Shown: piece after piece, positions 9,722 to 54,607 of the stretch
How the letters are laid out: the number at the start of each line of letters is the position of its first letter
How positions within the stretch are numbered: the stretch's first letter is position 1
The notes under the pieces: model-generated
Told to the model about the DNA's origin: nothing
What the model saw: the letters and a program-made list of their open reading frames with translations, nothing else
The model's database searches: none
Program-made: the position numbers and the translations under genes
IMG/VR virus record: IMGVR_UViG_3300025732_000024
Coordinates: 1 to 64,000 of that record
Source: a virus
Length of the DNA stretch: 64,000 bases
Strand: one strand, 5' to 3'

Positions 9722-9958
9722 ATGATTCTGGCGTACAGATTGGGATATCTTATGGAAAAACATCACGACACACAAGTAGAAATCAGGTGTAGACAGGATT
9801 TAAAGGAAAGTCTGTCTAAAAAGCTCATAGCTTGTGGCTATGTCTACCCCAAGGGATCAGAAGCACTGCCAAGCTTTGCTAAATTCCTGGAAGCGTTAGA
9901 CGGTAAGGACTTGAAGTGGTTTAGAAAAAATTTCAGAAAAGGGGTTGACAATCCCTAA
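9722..9958 (+). CDS. RHH-like small regulator (paralog of 13671..13892)
   Basis: Shares RC..(D/E)LK.SLS.KLIACGY.Y.K..E.L..FA.FLE.LD.KDL.WF with the paralog. Start may be ATG 9752. Confidence 0.65.
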   Translation: MILAYRLGYLMEKHHDTQVEIRCRQDLKESLSKKLIACGYVYPKGSEALPSFAKFLEALDGKDLKWFRKNFRKGVDNP

Positions 9959-9973
9959 AAACTGGGATACAGT
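9945..9973 (+). promoter_or_regulatory. Sigma70-type promoter of ribozyme operon 1
   Basis: TTGACA-17 nt-TACAGT, with an ATCCC...GGGAT inverted repeat in the spacer. Confidence 0.7.
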
Positions 9974-10017
9974 TTAAACATAGGAGACGAGGCAACACCA
10001 CTCACACCTCGGTTAAG

Positions 10018-11223
10018 TTGATAAAAAATTTGCAAAAAAGACAACAAACTTTAATCAATTTAATCACCCGTGTAGGTGGTCGCCAAAACATCCAGAAATG
10101 GATGGATGAGATTTTAAAGATTGATATTAAACTGGAGACAAAGGCAATGTTCAAGATTAATGTTAGCGAGTTACATATTGAGATACAGAAAAAGTTAGCT
10201 GAAGAATTAAACGGAACTTTAGATAATTCTGGGCTAGTAGATGTTATTGTGACATCTGTTAATCCAGAAAACCTGGACTGGTATAAACTGGAAATCGCCA
10301 TTTACGGAGAAATTGATGACGATTCTGACAGATTGTATGAATGTGTTTCTTGGGTTTTGCCCCAAGAAACAACCGCAAAAGTTGATACTTTGCTACAAGA
10401 AATTCAGGCGGCGTTAAGTTCCTTGAATGATTGGTATAAGTATCAACAACATGGCGCGCCATGCGCCATGTTCAATTGCTCTTTTGAAAGAGCAGTTGAG
10501 CCATACTGTCACGGATTAAACAGAGAGTATTGGGGCGAAGCTTTTGCATCAACAGGCAAAAGCAAAAACAAGGTCGCATACGACCAGGGTCTCGGTTTTG
10601 CTGGTAACACAACTGTGGATACCATCTGTTACACTGTATGGGAATATGCCCACGCAGACGGAACTGCTATTTGGGTTACAGAGAAAAAAGAGAATATTCG
10701 TATTGCCACTGAGCAAGAAATTCTTGCCAAGGTGCAAAACAATGTGTACGAATACTGCCAGCGCGAGAAAATCACGTTTGCAGACTTGGTAGCTTCTATC
10801 GAAAAAGTCCGTGTTCGCTGGGAACAGGACGAGTTAGCGAAAATTGCGGCAGAAGAAGCCGCTAAATTGGAAATACCCGAACCAGAGTGGATTCGGAAAG
10901 AAATATACGAAAAAAACCTAAATCGCTTCTGGATCGGTGATGACTACGTATTTAGCTATTGCTGGGATACCACACTAGGGATAGTGTGGGAGGACTGTGA
11001 CGACCGCACCAAGGGCATGGCTGGTCGAGTGAAGACCAGCAGCAACCTCGGCTCTGACAGAGGAGTCGTCATGGCTCGAATAAATTCTCTCATTGAAGAG
11101 AGAAGTCGGAAATCTGCCCAAGAGAGGGCAAAAGAGGAAGGCTATGAAGCCTATAAAAAGGTTCAACAGTCCAACAAGCGGCCTATCAAATCTTTTGAGA
11201 AATGGCTACAAACCGTAGCCTAG
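10018..11223 (+). CDS. Hypothetical protein (first gene of ribozyme operon 1)
   Basis: 401-aa ORF; its stop codon abuts hammerhead 1. Alternative start at ATG 10147. Confidence 0.7.
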   Translation: MIKNLQKRQQTLINLITRVGGRQNIQKWMDEILKIDIKLETKAMFKINVSELHIEIQKKLAEELNGTLDNSGLVDVIVTSVNPENLDWYKLEIAIYGEIDDDSDRLYECVSWVLPQETTAKVDTLLQEIQAALSSLNDWYKYQQHGAPCAMFNCSFERAVEPYCHGLNREYWGEAFASTGKSKNKVAYDQGLGFAGNTTVDTICYTVWEYAHADGTAIWVTEKKENIRIATEQEILAKVQNNVYEYCQREKITFADLVASIEKVRVRWEQDELAKIAAEEAAKLEIPEPEWIRKEIYEKNLNRFWIGDDYVFSYCWDTTLGIVWEDCDDRTKGMAGRVKTSSNLGSDRGVVMARINSLIEERSRKSAQERAKEEGYEAYKKVQQSNKRPIKSFEKWLQTVA

Positions 11224-11285
11224 CCCACCTGATGAGTCCGGCTGGCGACCGGACGAAACACTCCATTGAGTGTCGTGGGAAGCCG
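11224..11285 (+). ncRNA. Hammerhead ribozyme type I (HH1), predicted cleavage after C11274 (GUC)
   Basis: Stem I CCCAC/GTGGG; core CTGATGA; stem II GTCCGG/CCGGAC; GAAA; stem III CACTC/GAGTG; GTC triplet. Loop II TGGC can pair with downstream GCCG. Confidence 0.95.
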
Positions 11286-11305
11286 TTACACCCCACTGGA
11301 AATCT

Positions 11306-11668
11306 ATGACTATTTACTCTTTTTTATCCCAGGAATTAAATACACAACTCGGTATCGTTGCCGATGTTACGTACTCGAAAGAGTACGGGAATACATTCGA
11401 GTTCAGCCTCGAATTCGAGGAACAACTCTTGGTGGAGGAATTCCACCACAGTTACGGGGATAAAGACCTCGTAGAAAGCCAACTCATCACCCTTACTCAG
11501 GGTGATCACGTAATAGCCGCTCACATGAGTGGCGTAACTCTAATCTTGCTGTCAAAAATGGGAGTTAAAGTTTCCCTTTTAGAGACTGAAGTGAGGAAGT
11601 TACCTCCGGAAAAACAAACGGAAAATAAAAAAGCGGAGTTGATATATTCTTTAGTCTCATTGGACTAA
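11306..11668 (+). CDS. Ribozyme-led acidic protein, paralog A
   Basis: Start at ATG 11306 after HH1; near-identical N-terminus to 11764..12009. Confidence 0.75.
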   Translation: MTIYSFLSQELNTQLGIVADVTYSKEYGNTFEFSLEFEEQLLVEEFHHSYGDKDLVESQLITLTQGDHVIAAHMSGVTLILLSKMGVKVSLLETEVRKLPPEKQTENKKAELIYSLVSLD

Positions 11669-11680
11669 AGGCAAACGTAG

Positions 11681-11742
11681 CCCACCTGATGAGTCCGGCT
11701 GGCTACCGGACGAAACACTCCCTTGAATGTCGTGGGAAGCCG
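11681..11742 (+). ncRNA. Hammerhead ribozyme type I (HH2), predicted cleavage after C11731
   Basis: Same architecture as HH1; stem III CACTC/GAATG has one mismatch; loop II TGGCT pairs with AGCCG. Confidence 0.9.
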
Positions 11743-11763
11743 TTACATACCCACTGGAAATCT

Positions 11764-12009
11764 ATGACTATTTATTCTTTTTTATCCCAAGAATTAAATA
11801 CACAACTCGGTATCGTTGCCGATGTTATCATCGCCGACGATGAATGCCACGAGATCACCCTTACTCAGGGTGATCACGTGATAGCCGCAACGATAGACCC
11901 TTTAACTTTAATAGGATTATTTCAAATGGGAGTCAAAGTCTCTCTTTTAGAGACTGAACTCACGGAAAATCAGAAGGCAGGATTGATGTATTCTTTAGTC
12001 TTAGACTAA
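11764..12009 (+). CDS. Ribozyme-led acidic protein, paralog B
   Basis: Start at ATG 11764; MTIYSFLSQELNTQLGIVADV identical to paralog A, with an internal deletion. Confidence 0.75.
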   Translation: MTIYSFLSQELNTQLGIVADVIIADDECHEITLTQGDHVIAATIDPLTLIGLFQMGVKVSLLETELTENQKAGLMYSLVLD

Positions 12010-12026
12010 AGGCAAACTTGTTGTAG

Positions 12027-12088
12027 CCCACCTGACGAGTCCGGTTGGCAACCGGATGAAACTACCACCTGGTAGTAGTGGGAAGCCG
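12027..12088 (+). ncRNA. Hammerhead ribozyme type I (HH3), predicted cleavage after A12077 (GUA)
   Basis: CCCAC/GTGGG; core CTGACGA; GTCCGG/CCGGAT; GAAA; covaried stem III CTACC/GGTAG. Confidence 0.9.
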
Positions 12089-12108
12089 TTACACCCCACT
12101 AGAAAAGC

Positions 12109-12405
12109 ATGAACAAAGCACTGGAGCGTCCGCTTAAATGGCATCAAGAAAAATTCTATGCCACAAAGGAACAACAAGTAAGATGCTACTTGTTGTTCCA
12201 AATGACAGAAGACGGGGAGGAGCATAACTGCTTCTTCCCATACACAAAGAGTGGTTATCAAGCCGCTTTAGCCTTAGCCAAGAAGCTAGGGCAAAGCCCA
12301 GATCGAATTCAAGCCACAAGTGAAAAATTAAAATGGATTCTTCCCTACGGAGTGCGCTCCGTGGAGGAGTATGAGAAGTGGTGTAAAGAGTGGGGTATCG
12401 CTTGA
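12109..12405 (+). CDS. Hypothetical protein downstream of HH3
   Basis: ATG at the same distance from the ribozyme as in paralogs A and B. Confidence 0.7.
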   Translation: MNKALERPLKWHQEKFYATKEQQVRCYLLFQMTEDGEEHNCFFPYTKSGYQAALALAKKLGQSPDRIQATSEKLKWILPYGVRSVEEYEKWCKEWGIA

Positions 12406-12632
12406 TGTCCTACCGCTTAGTAAAATACGCCTACGCGGTAGGCGATAGTCTCATAGGTTACTCTGACAAAAACACAGTCAAAGTAGCTGGGGAAATAAAT
12501 CCCCAAGGGGCAGACTGGTACACCGTCACAACGCCAGTTACCTGGTGTTGTGACGGTGACCTGTTTAAGGGTGATGATGGGGAAATCATCGCTCGCTGGG
12601 AATTGGAAAAAAGAATGGGATGGAATAAGTAA
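12405..12632 (+). CDS. Hypothetical protein
   Basis: TGATG stop/start overlap with the previous gene. Confidence 0.6.
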   Translation: MSYRLVKYAYAVGDSLIGYSDKNTVKVAGEINPQGADWYTVTTPVTWCCDGDLFKGDDGEIIARWELEKRMGWNK

Positions 12633-12806
12633 ATCAAAAGCGATCGCCCCTCCGACCAAGAAGTAAGCGATCGCCTATCACACCAATCATGATGAGATTA
12701 GTGAATTATATCCTAGTTGCCGTCATTTTGATCATATCTGCTAGGGATGATCAGACAGGCGATTGCCTCAAACGCGGCGACTGCAAAGCAAATATCCAGA
12801 ACGCAC

Positions 12807-13175
12807 ATGAAAGGAATATTGTGGGGCGTGCTACAAACGCCCCTGTCCACACCCCGACGTTACCCATTGGGAACGCCACACCACGTCACACTCCAGTTCG
12901 GAGTTGACCGCGACGACTGGAAACACCTGGAGGGTGTTGTTTTCCAAGCTACAACTAAATTTGAAGCCTGGAATGACAAAATTCAGGCTGTAGCTCTAAC
13001 GCTACCAGGTGACATCCCCTGTCAGAACGGAACACCTCACATCAGCGTAAGCTGGTGCGAGGGCATCAAGCCCTATGAGTCAAACCTGATGCTTGCGTCA
13101 GATTTTCACTCAAAGTCCCTGTCCCAAACACTAGAATTCAAAATCGAATTTCTAGCCTGGGAACAACCAGAGTAA
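12807..13175 (+). CDS. 2H phosphodiesterase (cyclic phosphodiesterase / Acb1-like fold)
   Basis: Two Hx(T/S) motifs, PHHVTL and PHISVS, plus KPYESN.ML as in Trl1-CPD-type 2H enzymes. Confidence 0.8.
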   Translation: MKGILWGVLQTPLSTPRRYPLGTPHHVTLQFGVDRDDWKHLEGVVFQATTKFEAWNDKIQAVALTLPGDIPCQNGTPHISVSWCEGIKPYESNLMLASDFHSKSLSQTLEFKIEFLAWEQPE

Positions 13176-13217
13176 CACAGGCATCCTGCCTGTCTCATCC
13201 ACACAAAAGGAATCACA

Positions 13218-13619
13218 ATGAACATCTACTTCTTCTCCCGACACGAACCCCACCCCGAAATGATTGCAGACTTAGGTGCAATCACCCAGCAATTTACAGG
13301 AACAATTTCCAGTATTGTCCGCGATCGCAATACTATAAAATTCCTAGAGACCCCACTAGGTCAAACCGATGCAGTCAGTCACAGCATACCCTCTAACTGC
13401 ATCGTAGTGGCAGTTGCCCCGCTCCCACTACAAGAAGCATGGTTAAAGGCTGGTGCTACATTCCTCGTCCCTCAAAACAAGCGAGAAAAAGACCCTGATG
13501 GGCAATTTGTTTTTAGGTATTCAGGACTACTCAGAGTCCTAAAAATCGAAGTCATAACGGAACAATGGGCAGGTGCATCGCCCAGCTTGGAAGACAAGCA
13601 CCGAGAAAGAAGCGCGTAA
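13218..13619 (+). CDS. SRH-motif small Rossmann-fold protein (Csx16/Csx20-like candidate)
   Basis: N-terminal YFFSRH, central VVAVAPLPL...AGA; AAGGA Shine-Dalgarno. Confidence 0.5.
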   Translation: MNIYFFSRHEPHPEMIADLGAITQQFTGTISSIVRDRNTIKFLETPLGQTDAVSHSIPSNCIVVAVAPLPLQEAWLKAGATFLVPQNKREKDPDGQFVFRYSGLLRVLKIEVITEQWAGASPSLEDKHRERSA

Positions 13620-13625
13620 TTCACA

Positions 13626-13660
13626 ACCCGGATTCTTCAAAGAGTCCGGGTTTTTATTTT
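13626..13660 (+). terminator. Rho-independent terminator of operon 1
   Basis: AACCCGGATTCT-tcaa-AGAGTCCGGGTT followed by a T tract. Confidence 0.85.
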
Positions 13661-14585: not shown

Positions 14586-17500
14586 CTATCTACCGTAGGG
14601 ATTACCGCGATTAATTGAGCCACCAACTCGCATTTCCCGACGGATACCATCAGATACCATTGCCTGTACAGCCTGGGATAATCTGCGAGTATCAACCTCT
14701 GAATCACTGCCTACCGCCACACTTACAGGTACGTTAATAGTCGTTGTGTTCCCCATTCTAGAGGCAATAGCACCATTACCACCAGCACCAACAACGCCAC
14801 CGTTAGCAAATCCGGCAACGCCACCTTGCAACTTGTTCCAAATAGCAGTTTCTTTGTGATTCAACACACGCTCACCCTCAGATGCAATAATGACATGAGG
14901 TACTCGTCCGGTGAGCGATCGCTCTTTATTCAACGCCCCGACTATACCGCCGTTGGCAAAAGTTGGCAGTTCTCCCACCATGCCACCAGCGAAAGCCATA
15001 TTAAAAGAAGTATTGGGAAGCACATCGCCAACGAAAGAGCCGCCCGAAGCCAACCCCGCTCCCTTGCCACCAAACAGTCCTGCGACCCATCCAAACAAAG
15101 AGTCAGTCATTCGCTTAGATGCAATATCAGCCAAAGAATCAATGAGGTTTTTAGTGATGGAATTAAATAAATCGGCTAAAGATTCACCAAAGCTTTTTGT
15201 GCTTAATAAAAACTCTTTAAATCCATTCCTGAAGCCACTCGTGGTATTCTTGATGACAGAAGCTAACTCAGAAAATTGCAATTTAATTGCATCTAGTTTG
15301 TACTCATTTGTTAACCGCAGATTTTCACGCAGTTCATTAATCTGTTCATTGGTTAACTTGTTTGCTCCTGTGGCTTTTTCATTCTTTCTAATAAAATCAT
15401 CCAACTGAATACTAGCTTTAGCAAAATCAAATTGTTGATTAGTAATTGCCACTTGCTTATCTATCTTTTCTGCACGGAAATCAAGCCCATAAGCTTTGAG
15501 TACAGAACTTCTAGCCTCAAGCACGCCCTTAAAGGAATCCTGGATAAATTGCGACCTTTCTAATAGTTTATTTGCGTTGTTAGTTCTCTCGGTAATTTTT
15601 TCAGCTTCAAGTTTAAGCTGAATGTTTTCTTTAGTAATAGCGTTTTCTTGTTGAGCAAGGTTTCTTTGTTTTTTAGCATCTTCAGGTGAAATTTCTTTAG
15701 TCTTTTCCTGTCTTGAGATATTGTTTAATTTTTCTCTCAAATCAAGGTCAGCATTTAATAAAGCTATATTTGCCTCTAATTCCGCAGTTCTAGCAGACTT
15801 AGTATCAAGAGGGTCTAACTGCTGTAGTAGTTTACGTTGCTCAATTTGTTTTTGAAGTAAAGCGACTCCAGATTTTTCATTTTGTATTGCAATACCTGAT
15901 AATCTAAGCTGCTCATCAAAGCCAAACTTTCCTTTAAAAGCATCAAGTATCTTGGGAATACTTGCATCATAATCAGATAGCATTTTTTTGGCTTGCTGAT
16001 TTTGAAGTACAGCAATTTCAAATACCTTGTCATTTGCCTTAATTGCTTTAAGTGCTAATTCTGCTGTGGGGAATTTTTGTAAAGCAGACTCAAACGCCGC
16101 TTTTAACAGTGGCTTATTGTCTACAGTTCCCTGGGTATCACGGATAGTTTTTTCTAAAGATTCTCTCTTTTTCTCCAGGGATCTAACAAGTTCACCATAA
16201 GCAATATTAAACCTTTCTAAGCTACTTAACCCACTAGGAGATAATCCCTCTGCTATTGTTTTAACAAAATCCAAGTTTAAATCCTTCATGCCACTAAGGA
16301 CAGAAAACCCAGCCTCTTCAGTTTGTCTAAGAAGGCGATAAATACCTAGCAATTGCTGTAGTCCATCTGTCAGTCTTTGCGCTTCGTTGTTCATCTCATT
16401 GGTGCTGTTCCTAGTAGCTGCCGCACCAAGATTAAGATTAGCCGCATCTGTAACTAGTCCTTGTAACTTATCAGGGTTAACCGCTCCGCCTGCCATTACA
16501 ATTTGGTTTAATTTTCCAAGGTTTTGTTGATAAAATTTCAAGAAATTGTCGTGCTTACCTTGAGGCGTACCTTGCCCAGAATACGCACTACGTTTATTAC
16601 CTAATCCAATACTTGCGTAGTGAGGGGCTAACTTATTGAGAACAGAGCTATCAATTTTACCCGCTACAACATCATCTAAAACGCCCCGTTGTAGCAAAGA
16701 ACCGATGAAGTATAAATCCTGTAATCCTGGACTAAATCCGGGCTGGTCTTTGCCTTGAAAATCAATCAGTTTAAACATATCAGGCATCGCATCCTTGCCA
16801 AACTGTTTCTTAGCAGCTTGGATAGATGCGTTAAAGTTCATCATCTGGTAACGTCCAGACGCGGTACTAGAATTATTAATGCCAGGAATCCAAGTTGGTT
16901 TTCTACCAGTTCCTACAAACGGATGTGTCGAGAAATCTTTAACATTTGCGCCACCAATCAGCATCCCGTAGCCGAAATTCTCAGAGTTCTTCCTAAAGTC
17001 TGTTCCTTCTGCCCGTGCCACAGCATTAGCTAAGGCTAAAACATTGGGATTCCTACGTAACTCATACAACTTTTTACCTAGTGGAGTCAGTTTTGCGTAT
17101 TCCTCCGCACTAAGGTCGTTACCACCCTGAGTGATTCTAGATGTACCGGGAATAGATTTATTAGATGACTGTGCAACTTTTCCAGTAATTACTTTAGCAA
17201 CTTCTACAGCCCCGACCGCCTGGTCAAAAACGATGTTTTTTATGCCACTGGTTTTGAGTGCTTGCTTGAATTTATTAAACTCAGCTTCGTTAGCAAAAAC
17301 AATGCAACCACTAGATCCAGGGTCAATCAGCCTATCCTTATCAATGTGGAAACCTATAGCTGTTCGTTCTGTTTCAAAGTTAGGTTCAATCCGTATTAAT
17401 TCATTGCCCATTTTCTTTTTGTTGCCAGCCGGGACTGTTTTGCCAAGCGTGTAACTACCAAACTCAAATGGACGTTTAGACCCTGCTTTCGTTTCGCCCG

Positions 17501-20500
17501 CACCGCCGAATATTTGTGTTCTGGGATTGCCAGAATTGACGATAAAACTATCAATAAGTTTACCTCGTTTGATGACAGCTAGCTGTAGTTTTTCAAGTCC
17601 GTATTCATCTTTTTCTCCCAATCTTTGAATTCTCACCAGAGACTCACCTTTGTTGGCATTTTGCACGGTTGCACCTGATTTTACCTTAGAGGTTGCTGGT
17701 GGTTGATTAGCGATCGCGCCGTAATTACCTCTTGCGAGATTGCTCAAAAATACTTGTGGGTTAATGTAGCGACCATTTGCCTTAACTCCAAAGTCCAAAT
17801 GGTCTCCCAGTACGTTTCCTAGCTTTTGTCCGGCTTGAACTTGTACTGATTTTTCTAGCGCACCACCTAATGCTTTTTTGATACTTTCAACAGACAAATG
17901 TCCATACTCTATGGTGATTTTCGTTCCTGATGGTAATACGCTGTTAACAAACACAGCACCATCATTGCCTTCCCATAGCTTTCCTGTGGCTACACCGGGC
18001 AGACTAGCAAGGATTTCCGCACCTGCACCAGCTTTAGCCCGACTATCAAAATCAACTTTACTGTGAATCCTACCTTTAGGGCGACTCCCCATGACGCTTT
18101 GCCCAAAGGTAGGTTTGTAGTTAATCAGGTCTTGAATAGTTGTATTTTTAACTGGTGATGCGAAATTAGTGGCTGGCGATGGTGCTGATGGAATTGTTGG
18201 TGCAGTGCCTGGTGTTGCATTGTCCATTTGCCCTAATATATCTAACGCTCCAGCAGCCCAATTAGGTGCATTCTGTGGAGACAAATCATTTGTTCCTACC
18301 TTTAGGCTATCCAAGGTAGAGGTTAATTTATCCAAAGTTGTGTCTAATTTAGTTCCTACCTCAGCAACGGTAGTACCCAGTCCTTGGAAAGCATCATTGA
18401 GTTGGTTGGTGGCTAATACGGCATCTTGCCCCAAGGATGTAACGACTTGCTGCACATCAGTGTTTATGCCTATAACGCTACCTTGGACTATCTTCAACTG
18501 CTCATCAAAATCTTTAATTTTATTCTCGTCAAAGGGAACTATCTTGCCGGGCAAGCTGCGTTGCAATTCACTGGCACGCAGTTTGATGTCATCTACATTA
18601 TTTTGATAATCATATTGTTGTTTCTTCTCATCCAATCGCTTTTTCTCCATATCAGTAGTTTGAGAAATGATATTAATAATTCCCTCAATAAACTGAGTGT
18701 AAATATTGTCGCCTGCACCTATCAATGCGGCTCTTAATTTGTTTTGCAGTTGAGAACCTTCTAGTGTTTTTTTAGCTTTCTCAAACTCAATACTTGCGCC
18801 TTGCGCTTCCCTGACCGAGGTTCTGTAATATTCAGCAACTTGCTTAGTTTGGTCAATCAAAGCTTGCTTCATATCACGTCGGGCTTTGGCAGTCTCTAGG
18901 GCATTTTGAGTTAATGATTCACGGTCTTTCATTATGTCTTCAGTCAACTTATCGTATTCTGATTGCGCTTCAGCTAAGTTAGTGCCACCCACTGCAATTA
19001 CCTGGGCTATCTTATCAAGAGCAGCCTGATTAGTTTTAAGTTTTTCCTCTAATAAAGTTCGGGAATCATTTAATCCTGCAAGTTGAATGTTTGCTAATTC
19101 AGGTGCTATTTGTTGTGATGTTCCCGCACTTGAATAGACTTTAGATTGACTTAAATTAGACTTGGATCTATTGGCGGAAGAGGCTCTTTCAAACTTAATG
19201 TTTGCATCTTTAACAGCGTTTGTCGCTTGAGTGTAGAGCATTTCTTCTACTGGTTTTACGTCAAATGGCTTGACTCCTGCTATTTGTTTTTTAAGTTCCT
19301 CAATTTGTCTCTGAGTCTCTTGAACAGCAGGAGTAATTAATGCCCCTTGAATACCTTCAACTTCTCCTAAAGTTAATTGTTCTTTATATTTTTCCAGGTT
19401 TTTAAGTTGTTTTTCAAGTATAGGCAATGGTGAGCCAAAACTATCAACTAATTCTTGCCGTCTTTTGTAGAGTTGTTGAATTAATTGCTTGACTTCGCCT
19501 TGTTCTTTGCGAACTTTATCGCTAGGTAATGCTTTGCTTAATTCCACTCCTTTTTTAGTGGCATTAATTAGCTGCTTGTCAACGTTTTTTATCTCTTGAA
19601 AATTGAATGCCCGTTGCACAGAAGCTTTGATTAGTTTTTGCTGATTCTTTTTCTGAGCCTCTAAAACTTTTAGCTCATCTTCAAGTTTAATTGTACCTGC
19701 GTCAGAACCGTCACCCATGCTTAATGCAAAAGCATCAGTGGAAGATGCAGCCATGAGATTTCTAGATGCAGAAACAGCCGCCCTTCTCTTATTAACCTCT
19801 GCCTGTTTCTTTTTAATTTTCTCATCAAGTTCTTTATCTATTCGCTGATTTCCTGGAGTATTACCTATTTGAAATTCAGCAGCAGCTAAAGCTACGGCAT
19901 TTCTCATCTGTTTAGATTTGTTTTCTAGCTCTTTAAACCCAGGTGAGTTTTGTAAATCTTTAATTTCTTGGGGACTAGCACCACTGTTTTTCTTGTCTGC
20001 TATGGCCGCTAGTCTTCTTTTGTTATTGTCTTTAATTTCCTGATTAAGCTTAGATATCGCTGGGGTATTATTAAACGTATTTTGCTGTTCCCCTGTCAAT
20101 GGTTTTATATCAGCCATAAAGTCGCCAGGCTTACCCGTAAAACCTTGACTAGCACCAAATTCTTTTAAGTTCTGAATATTCTTCTTCTGGTCTTCAAAAT
20201 ATTTTAGGATTTGTTGCTGGGCATTGGTTAAACGCGCGTTTTCCCCAAGGTCAAAATAACCTTCTAATTTATTATCTGCGATTAGTTGCTTTTGCTTCCC
20301 TGTCAGTTTAGGAGCAAACAAATCAAGAGCTTTTGTAGCGAGAACTATGGCAGCAATAAAACCACCTATTGAAACGACAATAAGTCCAAGCGGACTCATT
20401 ATAGCGGTAATCAATGGAGTTACCGCCATAGCAAGTCTACCAAAAATAGAAACGGGGGCAGTCGGACCTGCTATAAGAGCCTTGTTTGCGGCTATGGTTG

Positions 20501-23500
20501 CAGCCGTGGATACAGCAGAATTTAGAATTGAACTTAGAACTGATATCCCAGAAGCAAAAGCCGCACCCGCACCAGCAGCCCCCAAAGCACCAACTCCCAC
20601 CGCATCCATGAGAGAGCCGCTTGCAGAATCGCGTTTATTCCTCTCTTTAATTGCATCATCCCACTTAAAGTCGCCACCGCCCCAAAAGCTTCTGATATCC
20701 AGTTGTATGCCTTTAGAGGGTAATGTATCCGCTAACGTACCACCTAGCTTAGTGACACTATTTGTAGCTTTATCAAAGGAATCGGCAGTTTTTTGAACAT
20801 TAGCCCGTATTTCAGTTAGTCCATTGTTTAATTCCTTGGTAGTTTTTGACAACGAATCACCCATGGGATTACTGAAGTCACCTTTAGAGAACATCAAAAT
20901 ACCAAAAGCTACAGCCACATGAGTTAATGCTGTTCGCAAAAATCCCATGGTTGCAGAAAATATTTTTATTCTCGCTTCACTAGCAGCCATAGCAGAACTC
21001 ATAGAGGTCATCATTAGTTCAGCAGCGATTTTCATTGAAGTCATGACGCCCACAAAAGCTTTAGCTGCGCCGCCAAACATTCCTGTGACTGCACCTATGA
21101 ACCCTTTAAATGCAGGAGCCAAGGCCATGACCATTAGTGCTGTACCCTGCTCAAACATGAAGACCATCGCCAGTAATTCTACAAAACCGGGAGGAATAAT
21201 CTTAAAGAATCCAGAAAATACACCTTTAAGCCAATCAATAATATTACCAGCCTGTTCTGCACCTTGAACCAAACCACCAAACACTGACGAGAAACTAAAG
21301 TTACCATCACTCATCGAGCGCATCACTGAGTCAACCGTACTAAATGTGGCTACAATTGCATTCGTGACACCATCCATCATGTTTGCGATTAGGTCTTTTT
21401 CTGCACCCAGCCAATTATCAGCCACGTCCGCAGTTACACCGATAATCATCGGCATCATATTGGTGGCAACGGCTGTAAAGGTTGCCATTAGAAGGTTCTG
21501 CAACGAACCAAACAACACAACCAAGGGTTTTACCTTAGTCATAATCGTAGTTAGTCCAATGGCTATGGTTGCCGCAAAACCAATGGCAAATGCTTGTCCT
21601 AAAGGTATCAACGCGCCAAGTGTATTACTGAACAACGCCAAACCGTCCGCAAACGTGCCAACAAACCAGCCTAAAGTGCTACCAAGTTTGTCAGTAAATA
21701 TTGTTGTAATTTCAAAACCAACATTACCCAATTTATTCAGAGCTACAACCAAGCCTCCAGCTTGATTAGCAGCAGATGCACCATAATCTTGATTCAGGAC
21801 TTTAGCTACATTAGGCAAGACATCTTGAGATAAAACGCTACCAGATGCTACTAATGCATTCATTTCAGGAACAGACACGCCCATAGACTTAGCAAATACA
21901 CCCATGGCAGGCGGGAATTTCTCACCTAATTGCTGCCTTAGTTCTTCCATTGACAGCTTACCTTTTGCCAAGATTTGTGTATATGCCATGAATACCAAAC
22001 TAGCATCTTGCCCACTAATGCCTAATGCACTTAAAGATGCCGTAATACCCTCAAACAAATCCTTGACACCCTGTCCTTCCATCTTGCTACCTCTAGCCGC
22101 AATAGCTAATTGAGAGTAGGAGTTGGCAGCAACTTCAGAAGGGACATTCATTTTGGTGGCTACGTCTTTAGCATACTTAAATTCCGCTTCACCACCAGCC
22201 TTTGAACCACCCAAGAAAGTAAAGCGCCGCTGTAAAACTTCTACTCGCTGGATACCATCTAGCATCTTGGATATGTGAGGCATCACCATACTCACAGCCG
22301 CACCTATACCACCAATAATCGGAGCTAAGGGTAAGAATAGGGGCGATAGAGAAGCAAACAAAGTTGTCACGGGGGCTAAAGTTGTGGCAATAGAACCCAT
22401 GAATTGCAGCATATTGGGGAACATCTCATCGGCTTCTTTGGGATTGCTAAATAGAGCTTTTTTCACTCCTGCTCCCATCTGATTGTACATTTCCTTGAAC
22501 TGATCCTGGGTAGCAATTGTACCGCGAGTCATTCTTCTGAAAATCAAGCCGACAGCATCGCCAAAGTTAGCTTGTCCTATTGCTTTCTTAGCGTTGTATT
22601 CTAAATCATCCTTGGCATTGGCAAGATTACGGACAGAATCTTTAAATCCTTGCGCTAACGCCTTGCCCATATCAAAGCCTTTTTCCTTAAACTTAGCTTG
22701 TAATCCGGTTAGGGTAGCCATTAGTCCGGCTGTGGCTGTGTTTAAAAGTTTAGGGTCTATATTCTGGAGTTGCTCCGACGACATCCCAGCTTTTCTCAAG
22801 CCTTGCATCAACAAGCCTTTCAGTGCTTCCTGATCATTGGTTGCATAAGCTTGTGTAAGTCTGCCAACAACTCCGGTAGTATTAGGATTAGCAGCTAAAT
22901 CACGGCGTGTTTCCTCTAGTTTTCCCGACTGCTTCATAGAGGTGTAATCCGAGAAAGTTACACCGCGCTCTTTTAATACCTTGGCTGTCAGGTAATCTAG
23001 TCGCCTTTGCGCCCTGGGAACACCAAGCTTAAACCTGGAGCGTTCAATATCACCCATTGCAAACATGAGGTTTCGTTCATTTTCAGAGATTGCAAGGGGT
23101 TTACCGATAATATCTTGCCGTGCCTTCTCCAGTTCCTCTCTTGACATGGCTTCACGAGTAGTAGTATCAACGCCACGTCTTCTTAATGCGGCTTTAGTTA
23201 ATGCATCTAATCTCTCTGGTGATATTGTTCCAGACTTCATAGCACGCTCTAAGGCTTTTTCTGTCTTACTTCTTTGTACACCAATAGAACTAATAGCATC
23301 TGCTATTTTCCCTGATTGCTTGTTGATACTACGTCCTGTCATTCCTTGAATTACAGAAGTAGGAATCATGGGGATATTGAGATTTTCTAAAACACTATCT
23401 ACCGCAGTGTTACCTAAATTTTCAATCAATTCTCTACTAGCTTGACCGCCTTTTGCATTGGACAATCCCGCTTTTTTCCTATTAGCTAAAGTCTGTTCTT

Positions 23501-26500
23501 GCAGGACTCTTTCAACAGTAGGTGCTTGATTCTTGGGGTTAGATCGTGTAGATGGGTCTAGTCCTAAAAGTCCACTAAAGGTATTCATGAATGGACCGAA
23601 TAACCCCATGGCAAGAGAAAGGGGACCACCAATACCCGCAGTACCTATAACATTAGGCACAGGATTCATTATTTTAGAAATTGCGTCCAATATTCCGTGA
23701 GATTTTCCACCAGATAGAGAGGTTAGGTTAATCCTAGTAACAGAACTTAATAGCTTTGTTAAAAACCCACCTGGCTTTAAAACATCATTATTGAGTAGAT
23801 TCTTAATAATAGAATTACCTAATCCTAACGTTAATCCCCCAATTATGGGCATCAATGGCTTCAGCATGGGGATTAGCTGCATTGTTTTAGGAATAAACTT
23901 CATAAACCAAGGCAATGCAGATCGAGCTTGAGATAGCAATCCTTTGTAAAGCGGTTGTTTTAACGTATCAGCAAGGGAGAATAGGGCGGCGTTTACAGCA
24001 TTACGCATTACCTGACCTAGTGAAGCATAGCCAGACAATGTACTTTGCCGAATACTATCACCAACTGCGGTAAATAAATTGGTGACTAAGTCCTTACCTA
24101 GTTGTAAGTATTGATTCGTTGCGTTTTGTGGCGTACGAACTCTTATTGGTAAAAATCCGTCTGCGGGTGGTGGTGGTGTTGGGGCAAAGGGAGAAGGAGT
24201 GACAGCGGGAGGTTTGGCTGGTGATGCAGGTATGGGGAAGAATCCAAGTCCAGTAGGTAAACTAGGTTTGATTGTAGTAGATTTAAAGGGTTTAGGAACA
24301 AGAGATGCGGGGACTGTTGGTGGTAAAACAACGGGAAGTCTCGCACCTACTTGTCGAGTGAGCGATCGCACTACAGGAGAGCGCGGCGCGTTCATAAGGT
24401 CATCCAGGACAGTTGCAAAACCAGTCAAACTTGCAGTCATGTTCCTGTTGAGCAGAGCATTTAGGTTGACCAGCAAGTCTTTATTTTTATTAATCAACGC
24501 TTGTGCGTTGACTTCTTGTTGTGTAATAGTTGCCCTTGTCGCAATGCTAGGTCTGGATGGTAATATCAGTTGCGCGTCTGGATTTGGGGTAGCACTGTTT
24601 GGCAACACTAACCGTGCATCTGGATTTGAATTAACACTAGACGACAATACTAACCGTGCATTTGGGTTAGGCGCGAAACTGCGGGGCGTAATTATTGGGC
24701 TAACAGGCTGTGGTACAGCATTTTCCGTAACAGGTGAAGATTTTACATCCCTTTTTGCTTGCTGTAAAATTCCTGGTATTTCTGCCCTAGAAGCTCCAGT
24801 AATTCTAGCCATAACTTTACCAAATGTCGTGCTACTTGCTAAAATTTCCATTGCCTCAAAGGCGTTTAAGTCATTATATTTACCTCCTCTAAACCCTTTG
24901 GCAATCCTTTGATTTTGAGATTCTACTGTAGTGGCGAAATGTTCAGCTTTAGCTTTTTCTGATTCCGTCGCTGTAGCACTTTCATTGACAGTTTTAAGTA
25001 TTAACTCAGCAATTCTTTTATTGGCCAAAACCAAAGCTGCAACCGCACCATTTTCAAAGCCTTCGCCAAAATCCAATCCGATAGACTCCATTACCTTTGA
25101 TGGTGATGCAATCCCAAATACTTTTTTGACTGCGCCTAAAACACCCTTAGCAAAACCAATTACTATCCCCAATACACCGCCGTTAGCAGATAAAAAGCCT
25201 TGCCCAAAAGAAGAGATTAAATTAATACCTACCTCTTTAAGCCCACCACCCTTACTAAATGCAGACTTAGCATTGTTGAATAGATTCCCTAAGAGGTTAT
25301 TATTTCCCGTTGGCTGCTGGGATTCTTGCCCGTTGCCTAAAACGTATTCTTGGATTTTGGGATGATTTAAGAATTGCCCAAAATTACCTTTAGATGCAAT
25401 ATAAGGATTTGCTGCCAAATCTGTTAAATCGTCCAAACCCTTTCTGTCTAAGCGGTGTGTCTGAATATATGGATTGCCACCGATTAATTCAGAATGAACT
25501 GAATGCCCTAATTGAAAATCATTGCCAGACTGTGTATTAAGAAAAGAAAAAAGCTCACGCCCTGTTTTTTTGTTGTATTTAGTAAATGCCTTGGTGTTAC
25601 CAAATAAATTCTCTTCAATGCCTAATAAGCCTCGTAGCCATTTCTTTGACTCCAAAAATTTATATATCTTACTGCCTAAATTTTTAGGTAACTTAAACGG
25701 TGTATTTTTATCCGTATCGGTGTCTTGATGCCAGTCGTAGACATCGTTAATTTGCAAACCTCCGTCTTTGGTTTGTGTGTAATTGAATCCCCCTAGTGTA
25801 TGAGCCAGCGTGGGCAATGTCTTGTGTTTAACCATGCCCACCACGCCACCGTCAGGAAAATAACCATCACCTTTTTCGGCTGATTGCATCATATTGAAAA
25901 TAGTTGCAATTTCAGCCTCTCTAGCCAATTGTGGATTCAGCTTATGAACCTGGGTTGTACCTTGATAAAATGCCCCTAAATGCCTCAAGGGTGTTCGGAT
26001 TGATTTTGGAACTAAATTAGTGTCTGCAACACCCATCATCGCAGTCCCTAGAATCATTCCTGGGATTGTCGCTTTACTTGCTTTCTTAGCATTATCAAAA
26101 ACTTTTTTTGTAGTTTCTGAATTACTAGATACGGCATTTTTAATTGCCTGATCGTAAGATTCTATTCCTTCTGATGGTATTGATTTGATATTTTTTAAAC
26201 CATTGCCAACAACATCAGTCAGTAAGTCACTAGCACCGGAAACATCAACTACACCTTTTTTGATTCCAATAGCCAATCCCGATGCAATCATCAACCCTAA
26301 CGCAATCATTACTTTAGATGGTGATTGAATTTCCATCTTGGCTTTAACAGTCTTGATCAAGTCATCCAGCATAGCGCGGGCAGCATCGGATACACCACCA
26401 GCAGCGTGTTGAATACCTTTCTTTAGTCCTGCATCTACTTCTATACCCAGACTTTCCGCTTGGGCGACATAGCCTTTTAATTGCTGGTCAAACAGTTTTT

Positions 26501-28670
26501 TGTCTGCAAGGTTTAGCTTACCCAGAAAACCTTTCTCTGCACTGCGTGTATTCTTGGAAATACTAGACTTACCACTGCTATGAATCCTAGATAATTCACT
26601 GTTAATATCTTTGCTAAAACCCGCATCTTCTCCAGTTTTTACATATCTATCAATGGTAGAAATTGCTTCTTTTGACCTGGATACAAAATTAGAAACCTCA
26701 GACCTTGCAGCACTGATATCCTCTTTTGTACCAGCATCACTGATGGCATATTTAACCTTTGCCTGAATCCTCTTGTACTCATCGCTGAAATATTTGTTTA
26801 TTGCTATCAGCGACTGTTCAATACTATCCAAGGAAACCTGAGCAGATTTCTTGGTATTTTTAGACGATGGAATAAAAGGTAATGGTGTTAAATCATTTTC
26901 TGATTTTGTGGCGTTTTTATAGCCTTCAGATATATCAATATTTTTATGTATTTCAGATTGAATTGTTTTAAATAATGGCTTAATTTGCTCAGGAATATTT
27001 ACAGGAATAGGCTCTAATTCCCGTTTTTGTTGAGGTGGTGGCAATGGAGATTTGTTTGCTTTAGGTGGCAGTTGCTTAGGTATGGGTGCCGCATCTTGCC
27101 AAGGGTCTGAGATTGTTTTAGCAACAAAAGGTTTACTGGTTTTTGCCGTAGGCTCTGTTGACTTGACACTAACAGCAGCATCGCTCAACGCTTTAGCCGC
27201 ATTTTTTAAATCTGATGCGGCTTCCTTGAGAATATCTGAAGAAGATTTAGCGATTGGTTCTACTGGTTTTGCCGACACTCCAGTCTTTAGAAAATCTTTA
27301 ATAACTGGAGAAGCATTAGGCAATAATCTATTAAAAATAGACTCTACTGCTTTTTTTGATTGTGAAGCTATCCCTTCTCCAATATATTTATTAACTGCAC
27401 CTTTATCGCTACTTTCAGCAGCATCGAAGAATCCACTAATAGCATTTTGAACCCCAGGTGCAGAATTTTGAGTGACCGCTTTAGCGGATTGTCTGGCTTG
27501 TCTAATGGTTGCTAATTTAGCATTTTGAGCAACGCTTTCAATAGTGACATTAATGCTGTCAGAGAACGCCTTGTTTATCTCCGAAAATGTACTAGAAATA
27601 ACTCCGGAATTACTTTGTTTTATTGAACTACCAGAATATTCCTTAATAGCATCCTCAATGATTGCCTTAACCCTAGCCTGCTCATTTTTGGGGTCTGATT
27701 GTGCTTTTCTGCCAACTCCAAAATATCTTAACGCGCTGCTACTAGCTATCCTACTAGCACTTTCAAAGTCTACACCTATATCATCACTAGCGGCACTCCT
27801 GGTGGCTCTTCTACCCCTAGTGCCTTTTTCTACCCTACTATCATGAGTTCTAATAAACGCATCCATTCCATCTTTGAAAATAGCCTCAATGCGCTTCTGT
27901 TCATTCTTAGGGTCTGATTGTGCTTTTTTGCCAACTCCAAAATACCGTAAAAGCATATTTCCAGACATTCTAGTCATGTCATCCATGCTTACACCAATAG
28001 TATCCTCAATGCTGCTATTGATACCTTTAGTCAGTCTTTTCCCCACATTCTCGAAAGCACCATCAATAATGGAACGCATGGGACTAGCAACCACATCTAC
28101 CCGTTGAGCTTTACTAGAAGATGCGCTGTCTTTTTGTGCTTGCTGTTGAGATGATGCAACGGAAGACTCACTTACAGCATCTCTAACAGCACTTTGAACA
28201 GCATCGGTTAAGCTCTTTTCTAACTGTTTGCTTAACTCAGATTCAACGGTAATAGTAATAGTTTTATTTGATAATTTCCCTAATCTTTCTTCTAGTTCAT
28301 CTAGTTTAGTAACATCAGTATTAACAACAATAGGATTACTATTAAAATATTTATTAACCTCTTTAAGGTGTTGTACTTTGAGGTTTAAATGTTTGTTTAA
28401 ATCAACTAAACTATCGTCGTCAACGTTAACAACAATAGGATTATTACTGAAATATTTATTAACCTCTTTAAGGTGTTGTACCTTGAGATTCAAATGTTTG
28501 TTTAAATCAACCAAGTTATCATCATCTACATTAATTTCTAAATTGATTTTCTCAAAACTTTTTTCAATAGAACTTGCAGCTTCATAGGCTTTCTTTTTAG
28601 CCTGCTCTAAAGATTTTTCTAATTGTGCAGTATCAGCACACAATTCAACAACTAATTCACCTAAATTCAT
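14586..28670 (-). CDS. Giant tape measure protein with M23 peptidase, L,D-transpeptidase-like and lysozyme domains
   Basis: MNLGELVVEL start, SPSKVM motifs, tape-measure domain AKGKLSMEELRQQLGE, C-terminal FA.GG/SEGERVL. Located after the tail chaperones. Confidence 0.92.
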   Translation of the reverse strand: MNLGELVVELCADTAQLEKSLEQAKKKAYEAASSIEKSFEKINLEINVDDDNLVDLNKHLNLKVQHLKEVNKYFSNNPIVVNVDDDSLVDLNKHLNLKVQHLKEVNKYFNSNPIVVNTDVTKLDELEERLGKLSNKTITITVESELSKQLEKSLTDAVQSAVRDAVSESSVASSQQQAQKDSASSSKAQRVDVVASPMRSIIDGAFENVGKRLTKGINSSIEDTIGVSMDDMTRMSGNMLLRYFGVGKKAQSDPKNEQKRIEAIFKDGMDAFIRTHDSRVEKGTRGRRATRSAASDDIGVDFESASRIASSSALRYFGVGRKAQSDPKNEQARVKAIIEDAIKEYSGSSIKQSNSGVISSTFSEINKAFSDSINVTIESVAQNAKLATIRQARQSAKAVTQNSAPGVQNAISGFFDAAESSDKGAVNKYIGEGIASQSKKAVESIFNRLLPNASPVIKDFLKTGVSAKPVEPIAKSSSDILKEAASDLKNAAKALSDAAVSVKSTEPTAKTSKPFVAKTISDPWQDAAPIPKQLPPKANKSPLPPPQQKRELEPIPVNIPEQIKPLFKTIQSEIHKNIDISEGYKNATKSENDLTPLPFIPSSKNTKKSAQVSLDSIEQSLIAINKYFSDEYKRIQAKVKYAISDAGTKEDISAARSEVSNFVSRSKEAISTIDRYVKTGEDAGFSKDINSELSRIHSSGKSSISKNTRSAEKGFLGKLNLADKKLFDQQLKGYVAQAESLGIEVDAGLKKGIQHAAGGVSDAARAMLDDLIKTVKAKMEIQSPSKVMIALGLMIASGLAIGIKKGVVDVSGASDLLTDVVGNGLKNIKSIPSEGIESYDQAIKNAVSSNSETTKKVFDNAKKASKATIPGMILGTAMMGVADTNLVPKSIRTPLRHLGAFYQGTTQVHKLNPQLAREAEIATIFNMMQSAEKGDGYFPDGGVVGMVKHKTLPTLAHTLGGFNYTQTKDGGLQINDVYDWHQDTDTDKNTPFKLPKNLGSKIYKFLESKKWLRGLLGIEENLFGNTKAFTKYNKKTGRELFSFLNTQSGNDFQLGHSVHSELIGGNPYIQTHRLDRKGLDDLTDLAANPYIASKGNFGQFLNHPKIQEYVLGNGQESQQPTGNNNLLGNLFNNAKSAFSKGGGLKEVGINLISSFGQGFLSANGGVLGIVIGFAKGVLGAVKKVFGIASPSKVMESIGLDFGEGFENGAVAALVLANKRIAELILKTVNESATATESEKAKAEHFATTVESQNQRIAKGFRGGKYNDLNAFEAMEILASSTTFGKVMARITGASRAEIPGILQQAKRDVKSSPVTENAVPQPVSPIITPRSFAPNPNARLVLSSSVNSNPDARLVLPNSATPNPDAQLILPSRPSIATRATITQQEVNAQALINKNKDLLVNLNALLNRNMTASLTGFATVLDDLMNAPRSPVVRSLTRQVGARLPVVLPPTVPASLVPKPFKSTTIKPSLPTGLGFFPIPASPAKPPAVTPSPFAPTPPPPADGFLPIRVRTPQNATNQYLQLGKDLVTNLFTAVGDSIRQSTLSGYASLGQVMRNAVNAALFSLADTLKQPLYKGLLSQARSALPWFMKFIPKTMQLIPMLKPLMPIIGGLTLGLGNSIIKNLLNNDVLKPGGFLTKLLSSVTRINLTSLSGGKSHGILDAISKIMNPVPNVIGTAGIGGPLSLAMGLFGPFMNTFSGLLGLDPSTRSNPKNQAPTVERVLQEQTLANRKKAGLSNAKGGQASRELIENLGNTAVDSVLENLNIPMIPTSVIQGMTGRSINKQSGKIADAISSIGVQRSKTEKALERAMKSGTISPERLDALTKAALRRRGVDTTTREAMSREELEKARQDIIGKPLAISENERNLMFAMGDIERSRFKLGVPRAQRRLDYLTAKVLKERGVTFSDYTSMKQSGKLEETRRDLAANPNTTGVVGRLTQAYATNDQEALKGLLMQGLRKAGMSSEQLQNIDPKLLNTATAGLMATLTGLQAKFKEKGFDMGKALAQGFKDSVRNLANAKDDLEYNAKKAIGQANFGDAVGLIFRRMTRGTIATQDQFKEMYNQMGAGVKKALFSNPKEADEMFPNMLQFMGSIATTLAPVTTLFASLSPLFLPLAPIIGGIGAAVSMVMPHISKMLDGIQRVEVLQRRFTFLGGSKAGGEAEFKYAKDVATKMNVPSEVAANSYSQLAIAARGSKMEGQGVKDLFEGITASLSALGISGQDASLVFMAYTQILAKGKLSMEELRQQLGEKFPPAMGVFAKSMGVSVPEMNALVASGSVLSQDVLPNVAKVLNQDYGASAANQAGGLVVALNKLGNVGFEITTIFTDKLGSTLGWFVGTFADGLALFSNTLGALIPLGQAFAIGFAATIAIGLTTIMTKVKPLVVLFGSLQNLLMATFTAVATNMMPMIIGVTADVADNWLGAEKDLIANMMDGVTNAIVATFSTVDSVMRSMSDGNFSFSSVFGGLVQGAEQAGNIIDWLKGVFSGFFKIIPPGFVELLAMVFMFEQGTALMVMALAPAFKGFIGAVTGMFGGAAKAFVGVMTSMKIAAELMMTSMSSAMAASEARIKIFSATMGFLRTALTHVAVAFGILMFSKGDFSNPMGDSLSKTTKELNNGLTEIRANVQKTADSFDKATNSVTKLGGTLADTLPSKGIQLDIRSFWGGGDFKWDDAIKERNKRDSASGSLMDAVGVGALGAAGAGAAFASGISVLSSILNSAVSTAATIAANKALIAGPTAPVSIFGRLAMAVTPLITAIMSPLGLIVVSIGGFIAAIVLATKALDLFAPKLTGKQKQLIADNKLEGYFDLGENARLTNAQQQILKYFEDQKKNIQNLKEFGASQGFTGKPGDFMADIKPLTGEQQNTFNNTPAISKLNQEIKDNNKRRLAAIADKKNSGASPQEIKDLQNSPGFKELENKSKQMRNAVALAAAEFQIGNTPGNQRIDKELDEKIKKKQAEVNKRRAAVSASRNLMAASSTDAFALSMGDGSDAGTIKLEDELKVLEAQKKNQQKLIKASVQRAFNFQEIKNVDKQLINATKKGVELSKALPSDKVRKEQGEVKQLIQQLYKRRQELVDSFGSPLPILEKQLKNLEKYKEQLTLGEVEGIQGALITPAVQETQRQIEELKKQIAGVKPFDVKPVEEMLYTQATNAVKDANIKFERASSANRSKSNLSQSKVYSSAGTSQQIAPELANIQLAGLNDSRTLLEEKLKTNQAALDKIAQVIAVGGTNLAEAQSEYDKLTEDIMKDRESLTQNALETAKARRDMKQALIDQTKQVAEYYRTSVREAQGASIEFEKAKKTLEGSQLQNKLRAALIGAGDNIYTQFIEGIINIISQTTDMEKKRLDEKKQQYDYQNNVDDIKLRASELQRSLPGKIVPFDENKIKDFDEQLKIVQGSVIGINTDVQQVVTSLGQDAVLATNQLNDAFQGLGTTVAEVGTKLDTTLDKLTSTLDSLKVGTNDLSPQNAPNWAAGALDILGQMDNATPGTAPTIPSAPSPATNFASPVKNTTIQDLINYKPTFGQSVMGSRPKGRIHSKVDFDSRAKAGAGAEILASLPGVATGKLWEGNDGAVFVNSVLPSGTKITIEYGHLSVESIKKALGGALEKSVQVQAGQKLGNVLGDHLDFGVKANGRYINPQVFLSNLARGNYGAIANQPPATSKVKSGATVQNANKGESLVRIQRLGEKDEYGLEKLQLAVIKRGKLIDSFIVNSGNPRTQIFGGAGETKAGSKRPFEFGSYTLGKTVPAGNKKKMGNELIRIEPNFETERTAIGFHIDKDRLIDPGSSGCIVFANEAEFNKFKQALKTSGIKNIVFDQAVGAVEVAKVITGKVAQSSNKSIPGTSRITQGGNDLSAEEYAKLTPLGKKLYELRRNPNVLALANAVARAEGTDFRKNSENFGYGMLIGGANVKDFSTHPFVGTGRKPTWIPGINNSSTASGRYQMMNFNASIQAAKKQFGKDAMPDMFKLIDFQGKDQPGFSPGLQDLYFIGSLLQRGVLDDVVAGKIDSSVLNKLAPHYASIGLGNKRSAYSGQGTPQGKHDNFLKFYQQNLGKLNQIVMAGGAVNPDKLQGLVTDAANLNLGAAATRNSTNEMNNEAQRLTDGLQQLLGIYRLLRQTEEAGFSVLSGMKDLNLDFVKTIAEGLSPSGLSSLERFNIAYGELVRSLEKKRESLEKTIRDTQGTVDNKPLLKAAFESALQKFPTAELALKAIKANDKVFEIAVLQNQQAKKMLSDYDASIPKILDAFKGKFGFDEQLRLSGIAIQNEKSGVALLQKQIEQRKLLQQLDPLDTKSARTAELEANIALLNADLDLREKLNNISRQEKTKEISPEDAKKQRNLAQQENAITKENIQLKLEAEKITERTNNANKLLERSQFIQDSFKGVLEARSSVLKAYGLDFRAEKIDKQVAITNQQFDFAKASIQLDDFIRKNEKATGANKLTNEQINELRENLRLTNEYKLDAIKLQFSELASVIKNTTSGFRNGFKEFLLSTKSFGESLADLFNSITKNLIDSLADIASKRMTDSLFGWVAGLFGGKGAGLASGGSFVGDVLPNTSFNMAFAGGMVGELPTFANGGIVGALNKERSLTGRVPHVIIASEGERVLNHKETAIWNKLQGGVAGFANGGVVGAGGNGAIASRMGNTTTINVPVSVAVGSDSEVDTRRLSQAVQAMVSDGIRREMRVGGSINRGNPYGR
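28323..28535 (-). repeat. 105-bp (35-aa) tandem duplication at the tape measure N-terminus
   Basis: NVDDD(N/S)LVDLNKHLNLKVQHLKEVNKYFxxNPIVV occurs twice. Confidence 0.9.
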
Positions 28671-54580: not shown

Positions 54581-54607
54581 AACATGAGACAAAAGGAGAT
54601 AAAGAGT

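Follow-up and report, generated by a model that had tools for sequence, protein, structure and literature searches.

Two operons of an uncultured freshwater phage, known from a freshwater metagenome, probably encode genuine cis-acting type I hammerhead ribozymes, each with a pseudoknot between loop II and the 3' tail, that would cut the two operon transcripts between their cistrons. We analysed a stretch of DNA, hereafter the window, that makes up the first 64 kb of an IMG/VR virus record; the record is 95,304 bp long and bears direct terminal repeats. The window contains five near-identical type I hammerheads, all on the + strand and all intergenic, with predicted cleavage at 11274/11275 (HH1), 11731/11732 (HH2), 12077/12078 (HH3), 55727/55728 (HH5) and 56111/56112 (HH6); an earlier note on this DNA had spanned 11224-12088, that is HH1 to HH3, and HH5 and HH6 lie far downstream. 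A pattern search of the window for the core plus stem II returned 5 matches against 0.00 expected, and across the whole 95,304-base genome a covariance model and Rfam together gave five type I hammerheads, one type II hammerhead and no more.

Each type I unit of ~57 nt runs in the order CCCAC, CUGA(U/C)GA, stem II, a 7-nt loop, GAAA, stem III, U(C/A) and GUGGG. Stem II is GUCCGG/CCGGA(C/U), 6 bp, in every copy, and stem III has 5-6 bp and is closed by ~4 nt. The hammerhead core (C3 U4 G5 A6 N7 G8 A9, G12 A13 A14, A15.1-U16.1, H17) is complete in all five, its catalytic columns are invariant across 51 homologs, and the layout is that of type I, with three helices arranged round the core, loops closing stems II and III, and stem I open. 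HH1 (11224-11296; 81.6 bits with our covariance model, fold z -2.34) can serve as the reference, its parts being read directly from the sequence: stem I pairs 11224-11228 with 11275-11279, the core CUGAUGA lies at 11229-11235, stem II pairs 11236-11241 with 11249-11254 around loop II at 11242-11248 (UGGC at 11243-11246), GAAA follows at 11255-11258, stem III pairs 11259-11264 with 11268-11273 (CACUC/GAGUG being 11260-11264/11268-11272), and the pseudoknot tail GCCG at 11282-11285 is followed by a second CCCAC at 11292-11296. HH2 (11681-11754; 79.6 bits) has the loop II CUGGCUA (11699-11705), which permits a 5-bp pseudoknot, the tail GCCG at 11739-11742, a second CCCAC at 11750-11754, and a stem III CACUC/GAAUG with one C.A mismatch. 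HH3 (12027-12099; 75.5 bits, fold z -3.09) has its tail GCCG at 12085-12088 and its second CCCAC at 12095-12099; it departs from the other copies in its stem III (CUACC/GGUAG), in a CUGACGA core with C at N7, in a GUA cleavage triplet and in a G.U pair at the base of stem II (CCGGAU).

The two copies of the downstream operon share the stem III CACUC/GAGUG with HH1. HH5 (55677-55738; 81.1 bits), whose first base directly follows the TAA stop at 55674-55676, has its tail GCCG at 55735-55738 and carries UAUAAUUACAC in place of the downstream CCCAC. HH6 (56061-56122; 81.2 bits) begins 1 nt past the TAG stop at 56057-56059, ends in a tail GCCG at 56119-56122 and has no gene 3' of it, only the terminator at 56147-56175. 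Its 3' side consists of a leader remnant and the operon terminator, and cleavage there would detach the terminator hairpin from the last mRNA. The leaders of both copies (55739-55750 and 56123-56134) read GUAUAAUUACAC where orthologs carry GUUACAUCCCAC, a replacement by which the second CCCAC is lost and a TATAAT hexamer arises.

At minimum energy, each of the five 59-nt units folds into the hammerhead three-way junction, with energies of -22.4 to -24.1 kcal/mol and z values of -1.85 to -3.09, the exception being HH2, whose fold is weaker at -17 kcal/mol. At gathering scores, Rfam gives no match in the window. By E-value, RF00163 (Hammerhead_1) lists four of the five copies at 23.9-24.6 bits against a gathering score of 34, which is an operational criterion and not a defining feature of the ribozyme; HH3 is absent from the RF00163 listing even by E-value. 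The shortfall stems from the longer stems and loops of these units and not from their core. With a covariance model derived from homologs, the five copies score 75-82 bits and no further copy turns up in the whole genome, and Rfam gives no other ribozyme and nothing relevant in the last 31 kb. A larger conserved RNA around the hammerheads was considered and rejected, since upstream of stem I only a stop codon is common to the five copies.

Several features of the individual copies had been pointed out in the earlier note and can be read in the sequence as it described them: the exchange of CACTC/GAGTG (HH1, HH5, HH6) for CTACC/GGTAG (HH3) is compensatory, three pairs differing on both sides, and the variation of the core (CTGATGA/CTGACGA) and of the triplet (GUC/GUA) is verified, C at N7 and GUA both belonging to HH3. 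The mismatch in stem III of HH2 and the G-U pair at the base of stem II of HH3 are likewise present. The proposal attached to these last two, that they tune cleavage rate and hence gene stoichiometry, is not supported as written.

Whether the units are RNAs under selection or a neutral DNA repeat is decided by homologs. These were collected by a scan in which the core and stem II were specified and the loop was left free, so that the stem II sequence was fixed in the first set; the matches comprised 10 loci from viruses, 63 from metagenomes and 2 from genomes (a Gorillibacterium MAG and a Verrucomicrobiia MAG), and 48 of them could be parsed into complete type I hammerheads. Copies with other stem II sequences came from a second viral scan and from the covariance model. 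In an ungapped MAFFT alignment of 51 distinct viral and metagenome copies, restricted to those with a 7-nt loop II, 94.6% of cells are paired as opposed to 75.2% in shuffles that ignore relatedness (0/500 as high), and the covariation score is 0.526 against 0.154 (again 0/500). When the partners are slid along the same alignment, pairing falls to 29.6-43.6%. Stem I is 98.0% paired and four of its five pairs show changes on both sides; the corresponding values are 99.0% and four of six pairs for stem II, and 98.4% and five of six for stem III.

Further copies occur in other phages. Two uncultured ones hold dense arrays of the subfamily in which stem II differs from copy to copy, one with five type I hammerheads in 2.3 kb (L091:648-2904) and one with four in 1.3 kb (L012:2066-3376). 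A related phage has a degenerate copy (L007:2586-2659) in which core and stem II are intact, A stands for U16.1 and stem I has no partner, a 7-bp hairpin substituting for the 3' side.

The same test was applied to the pseudoknot. UGGC is present in loop II of all five copies, and GCCG stands 2 nt past stem I in all five, just as the earlier note had stated; this very invariance means that the pairing is undemonstrable from the window alone and that homologs are needed. With the pseudoknot core defined as loop positions 2-5 paired to tail positions 11-8 after the cut, the 4 bp are 91.2% paired in the 51 homologs against 80.2% in shuffles that ignore relatedness (0/500 as high) and 11-53% when slid, which bears out the tertiary contact suggested there. 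Pair 24-74 is CG in 30 copies, UA in 18, AU in 2 and GU in 1, and is never unpaired; pair 23-75 is GC in 43, AU in 5, GU in 1 and unpaired in 2. A fifth pair (U-A) is formed in 21 of the 51 copies, HH2 included. The two strands change in step, the window's UGGC/GCCG being replaced by UGGCU/AGCCA, UUGGCU/AGCCAA, UGACU/AGUCA, UAGCU/AGCUA, UGGU/ACCA, UGGUUA/UAACCA, GGAUA/UAUCC or GCGGA/UCCGC, and when loops are permuted against tails the mean best helix falls from 4.14 to 3.35 +/- 0.12 (0/2000 as high). On a weak tree of ~55 columns from which the pseudoknot was excluded, pair 24-74 undergoes six changes, each of them both-sided, but the 1-2 independent pairs on its few supported branches fall short of significance. 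In the window itself the pseudoknot has only 4 bp in four of the five copies, and one of these pairs is U.G. That hammerheads use such a pseudoknot is already published: Perreault et al. 2011 described such contacts for hammerheads of all three types and probed them with disruptive and compensatory mutants, and predicted that ~40% of all hammerheads use one (PMC3088659).

Evidence of the same kind comes from a 99%-identical phage, L083. There, the flanks of the HH1 ortholog are unchanged, and two helices differ from the window by compensatory changes, stem II being GGACGG/CCGUCC as opposed to GUCCGG/CCGGAC, and stem III CAUUC/GAAUG as opposed to CACUC/GAGUG. To judge by the homolog set, selection maintains the pseudoknot as well, even between near-identical phages. 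Because stems and pseudoknot remain paired while both of their sides change, we regard the units as selected RNAs; a neutral DNA repeat is ruled out by the compensatory changes, and the earlier claim of selection on the RNA is borne out by the homologs and by the L083 ortholog alike.

The L083 ortholog also sheds light on HH2. The 3' half of HH2, from the stem III loop on, matches that of the HH1 ortholog of L083 letter for letter, and the stem III mismatch thus looks like a duplication or recombination junction. Judged from the sequence, it would mark the junction of the duplication behind the A1/A2 gene pair and not a setting of the cleavage rate. An ortholog of HH6 (L011:9145-9213) has a stem II GUCCGG/CCGUCC with two mismatches; it looks like a chimera of two variants and may be decaying. 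Recombination between copies clearly happens. One could therefore ask if these ~75-bp units act mainly as portable homology for the duplication, loss and swap of cassettes, any RNA activity being secondary or decaying. Such a role would account for the tandem paralogs A1 and A2 with HH2 between them, for the chimeric appearance of HH2 and of the HH6 ortholog, for the recurrence of a gene family (MxIYSF...) after hammerheads in several phages, and for the promoter or terminator, instead of a gene, that follows some units. However, homology for recombination needs no base pairing, and both-sided changes in all four helices together with an invariant core can be accounted for only by selection on the folded RNA. 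We consider it improbable that portable homology is the main function; it is possible as an added consequence, not as the sole one. The mismatch of HH2 and the position of HH6 with no gene downstream indicate that not every copy need be active or useful.

The positions of the ribozymes are best understood from the two operons, each of which carries a clustered array of three co-oriented hammerheads on the + strand, as are the genes. Operon A (9945-13652) extends from a promoter-like site at 9945-9973 to a terminator-like hairpin at 13625-13652 and comprises, in order, a gene at 10018-11223, HH1, A1 (11306-11668), HH2, A2 (11764-12009), HH3 and four further + strand genes (12109-12405, 12390-12632, 12747-13175 and 13218-13619). 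Operon B (54548-56175, + strand) begins with a near-consensus promoter, TTGACA-17-TATAGT, at 54548-54576 and ends with the terminator hairpin at 56147-56175; between them stand a gene at 54608-55024, the type II hammerhead, a gene at 55101-55676, HH5, B2 (55760-56059) and HH6. The ribozymes of the window begin 0-17 nt past the upstream stop codon. Among 56 distinct homologs, the gap between upstream stop and stem I has a median of 2 nt (n=44), and a Shine-Dalgarno site plus ORF lies downstream in 43, with the start codon a median of 32 nt past the cut. Related phage records have 2-4 copies in the same one or two clusters, relatives in general 2-5 per cluster, and metagenome contigs up to five copies within 2.3 kb.

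The type II hammerhead of operon B, the 'HH4' of the earlier note, occupies 55025-55088 on the + strand, includes the base after the TAA stop, and scores 31.2 bits with RF02276 against a gathering score of 37. Its stem II is GCC/GGC, its stem III CGGGA/UCCCG, its predicted cleavage site 55047/55048, and its permuted core conforms to type II, as does the structure of minimum energy (z -2.45). Stem I has an A.C mismatch in the window and covaries in orthologs, the closest relative, L075, having a perfect stem and L034 a wholly different yet complementary one. A 4-bp pairing between loop I and the 3' tail (UGAC/GUUA) is lost in L034, one diverged ortholog, and a pseudoknot of this kind in the type II element is doubtful.

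Pfam and PHROGs give no match for eight of nine flanking proteins and only sub-threshold Pfam matches for the ninth (54076-54483), and a search of the protein atlas returned only scores < 0.9. Among the GenBank phage records searched there was no match for a 384-aa ORF at 33124-34281, picked as a likely structural protein, nor, by blastn, for the HH1 unit. A1 and A2 are tandem paralogs of a small family seen solely in metagenomes, whose members follow hammerheads in several phages. For A1 (120 aa, 11306-11668; paralog at 11764-12009), a fold is predicted with pLDDT 89.8, and each of the nine top structural matches is the N-terminal domain of a Cas1 integrase, with 70-76 residues aligned at Z 5.8-6.4 (Foldseek E 0.035-0.047). 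These Z values are middling and make the resemblance a lead only; if the predicted fold is right, A1 could be a stand-alone protein like the Cas1 N-domain that interferes with CRISPR adaptation. Elsewhere in the window, a single ORF of 4,694 aa on the - strand (14586-28670) probably encodes, to judge by its sequence, a giant protein, of the tape-measure or the injected kind, whose C-terminal part resembles a peptidase or lysozyme.

Parts of operon A occur in contigs of four metatranscriptome runs from three studies, where carry-over of DNA is possible. These contigs stop at the repeats (X17 and X18, for example, both start at 11340), and since they are assemblies that break at repeats, they cannot reveal RNA ends or cleavage and are uninformative on strand. 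One metatranscriptome contig, from run X18, matches the 44 nt at 12634-12677 alone, with unrelated letters on both sides; one flank, GTCGTTTCAGTCCCCTTGCGGGGATTAGAT, looks like a CRISPR repeat of a cyanobacterial kind, and the match may be a host spacer against the phage, hence a clue to the host.

We infer that cleavage takes place in vivo and that it serves to let every cistron have a stability and a translation of its own, as opposed to controlling a single target gene. In the sequence of events that we propose, the ribozymes would be transcribed within the two operons, each placed after a stop codon and ahead of the next ribosome-binding site, and the Watson-Crick pseudoknot of UGGC with GCCG would hold stems I and II side by side. 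If the related ribozymes of Perreault et al. 2011 are a guide, this would give fast cleavage at cellular Mg2+; pseudoknots of this type were required there for fast cleavage at 0.5 mM Mg2+, and clustered prophage hammerheads cleaved in living E. coli (PMC3088659). The polycistronic transcript would then be split into single-gene mRNAs by self-cleavage after C17 or A17, the upstream piece having the folded ribozyme body at its end, terminated by a 2',3'-cyclic phosphate, and the downstream piece beginning with a 5'-OH and a leader of ~32 nt that carries the Shine-Dalgarno site. The packing of the units between a stop codon and the next start fits such cutting into single-gene mRNAs.

In HH1 to HH3, the leader could also form a 5'-terminal GUGGG...CCCAC hairpin, and this raises the possibility that cleavage is gated or made irreversible, the CCCAC located 17-25 nt past the cut and before the Shine-Dalgarno site rivalling the upstream CCCAC for GUGGG. 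Prior to cleavage, such competition would hold some molecules inactive and tune the extent of cutting; afterwards, the 3' product would be caught in a 5'-terminal hairpin, so that re-ligation would be blocked and the mRNA protected. CCCAC at +17 to +25 is found in 30 of the 56 distinct homologs, all of them members of the AT-rich GUGGGAAG clade that includes the window, and it stands directly before the Shine-Dalgarno site even as the spacer between cut and CCCAC varies in sequence and length. The 3' products of HH1 to HH3 are predicted to fold into the GUGGG/CCCAC hairpin at -6.4 to -6.9 kcal/mol, and the lowest-energy fold of a 78-nt precursor contains this alternative hairpin and not stem I. 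However, in energy the hairpin does not surpass shuffled sequences (z -0.6 to -1.35), CCCAC is absent from other clades that share this GUGGG, HH5 and HH6 of the window have lost it, and the motif could equally belong to the translation start region. Covariation is of no help in this case, being impossible where GUGGG never varies inside the clade. We therefore treat the downstream CCCAC hairpin as a lead, not a finding, and think gating of this kind rather unlikely. If true, it would be a natural counterpart of the synthetic insulator RiboJ of Lou et al. 2012, which was reportedly engineered from a plant satellite RNA hammerhead. The resemblance lies in the order of hammerhead, short hairpin and ribosome-binding site, and in the fixed 5' end provided to the downstream gene; unlike in RiboJ, the hairpin here is predicted only and is built on the stem I strand itself.

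A further consequence of tandem hammerheads may be considered. Retrozymes and viroid-like circular RNAs are eukaryotic RNAs, non-coding or belonging to retroelements, whose circularisation is established. As in these, a unit that can be excised at both ends lies between direct repeats of a type I or III hammerhead; unlike in these, the unit in the window is a protein-coding cistron of a phage, for which no circle is known. HH5-B2-HH6 (55728-56111, 384 nt) might be excised, rebuild a hammerhead from its ends and be circularised by self-ligation or by a host ligase of the RtcB type. The stem I and pseudoknot strands of HH5 are the same as those of HH6, so that the 5' end of the excised RNA would fit the ribozyme body at its own 3' end, HH6 is not followed by a gene, and the possibility of circles was mentioned by Perreault et al. 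2011; spliced or circular products were, however, sought in that work and none were found (PMC3088659). Moreover, any tandem hammerheads share ends that can be rebuilt, and HH6 orthologs may be decaying in a relative. We judge circular mRNAs highly improbable at this locus; if they did exist, they would be the phage counterpart of retrozyme and viroid-like circles.

Known systems come close to this locus. The units resemble the pseudoknotted type I hammerheads (Perreault et al. 2011; RF00163, clan CL00010) in having the same core, an open stem I and a pseudoknot of at least four pairs that replaces the loop-loop contact. They differ from the members of RF00163 in that the subfamily of the window, with its 6-bp stem II, 7-nt loop II and 6-bp stem III, falls below the gathering score, and from known pseudoknotted type I hammerheads in that one clade of the subfamily adds CCCAC past the pseudoknot strand. 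As in the prophage clusters (Perreault 2011 Figure 3; the Agrobacterium tumefaciens triple), the ribozymes are co-oriented, intergenic, of mixed types II and I and on one transcript, the flanked genes vary between phages, and the proposed role is the processing of single-gene mRNAs; unlike in that description, the packing is quantified here (medians of 2 nt and 32 nt) and one unit precedes a terminator. The arrangement has been known in phages since 2011, and this locus is a good new example and not a new type of element.

The role of bacterial and phage hammerheads was called unresolved in a 2019 review (PMC6765202). With two small, bounded operons and six ribozymes of two types, the locus provides a clean case for the study of hammerhead function, and it offers natural variants in the form of a stem III mismatch, a core-adjacent G.U pair, and copies with and without the downstream CCCAC. 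Since the subfamily is missed at Rfam gathering scores, counts of phage hammerheads that are based on Rfam are too low. Any functional model for these ribozymes must explain why they are packed, with only a few bases to spare, between a stop codon and a ribosome-binding site.
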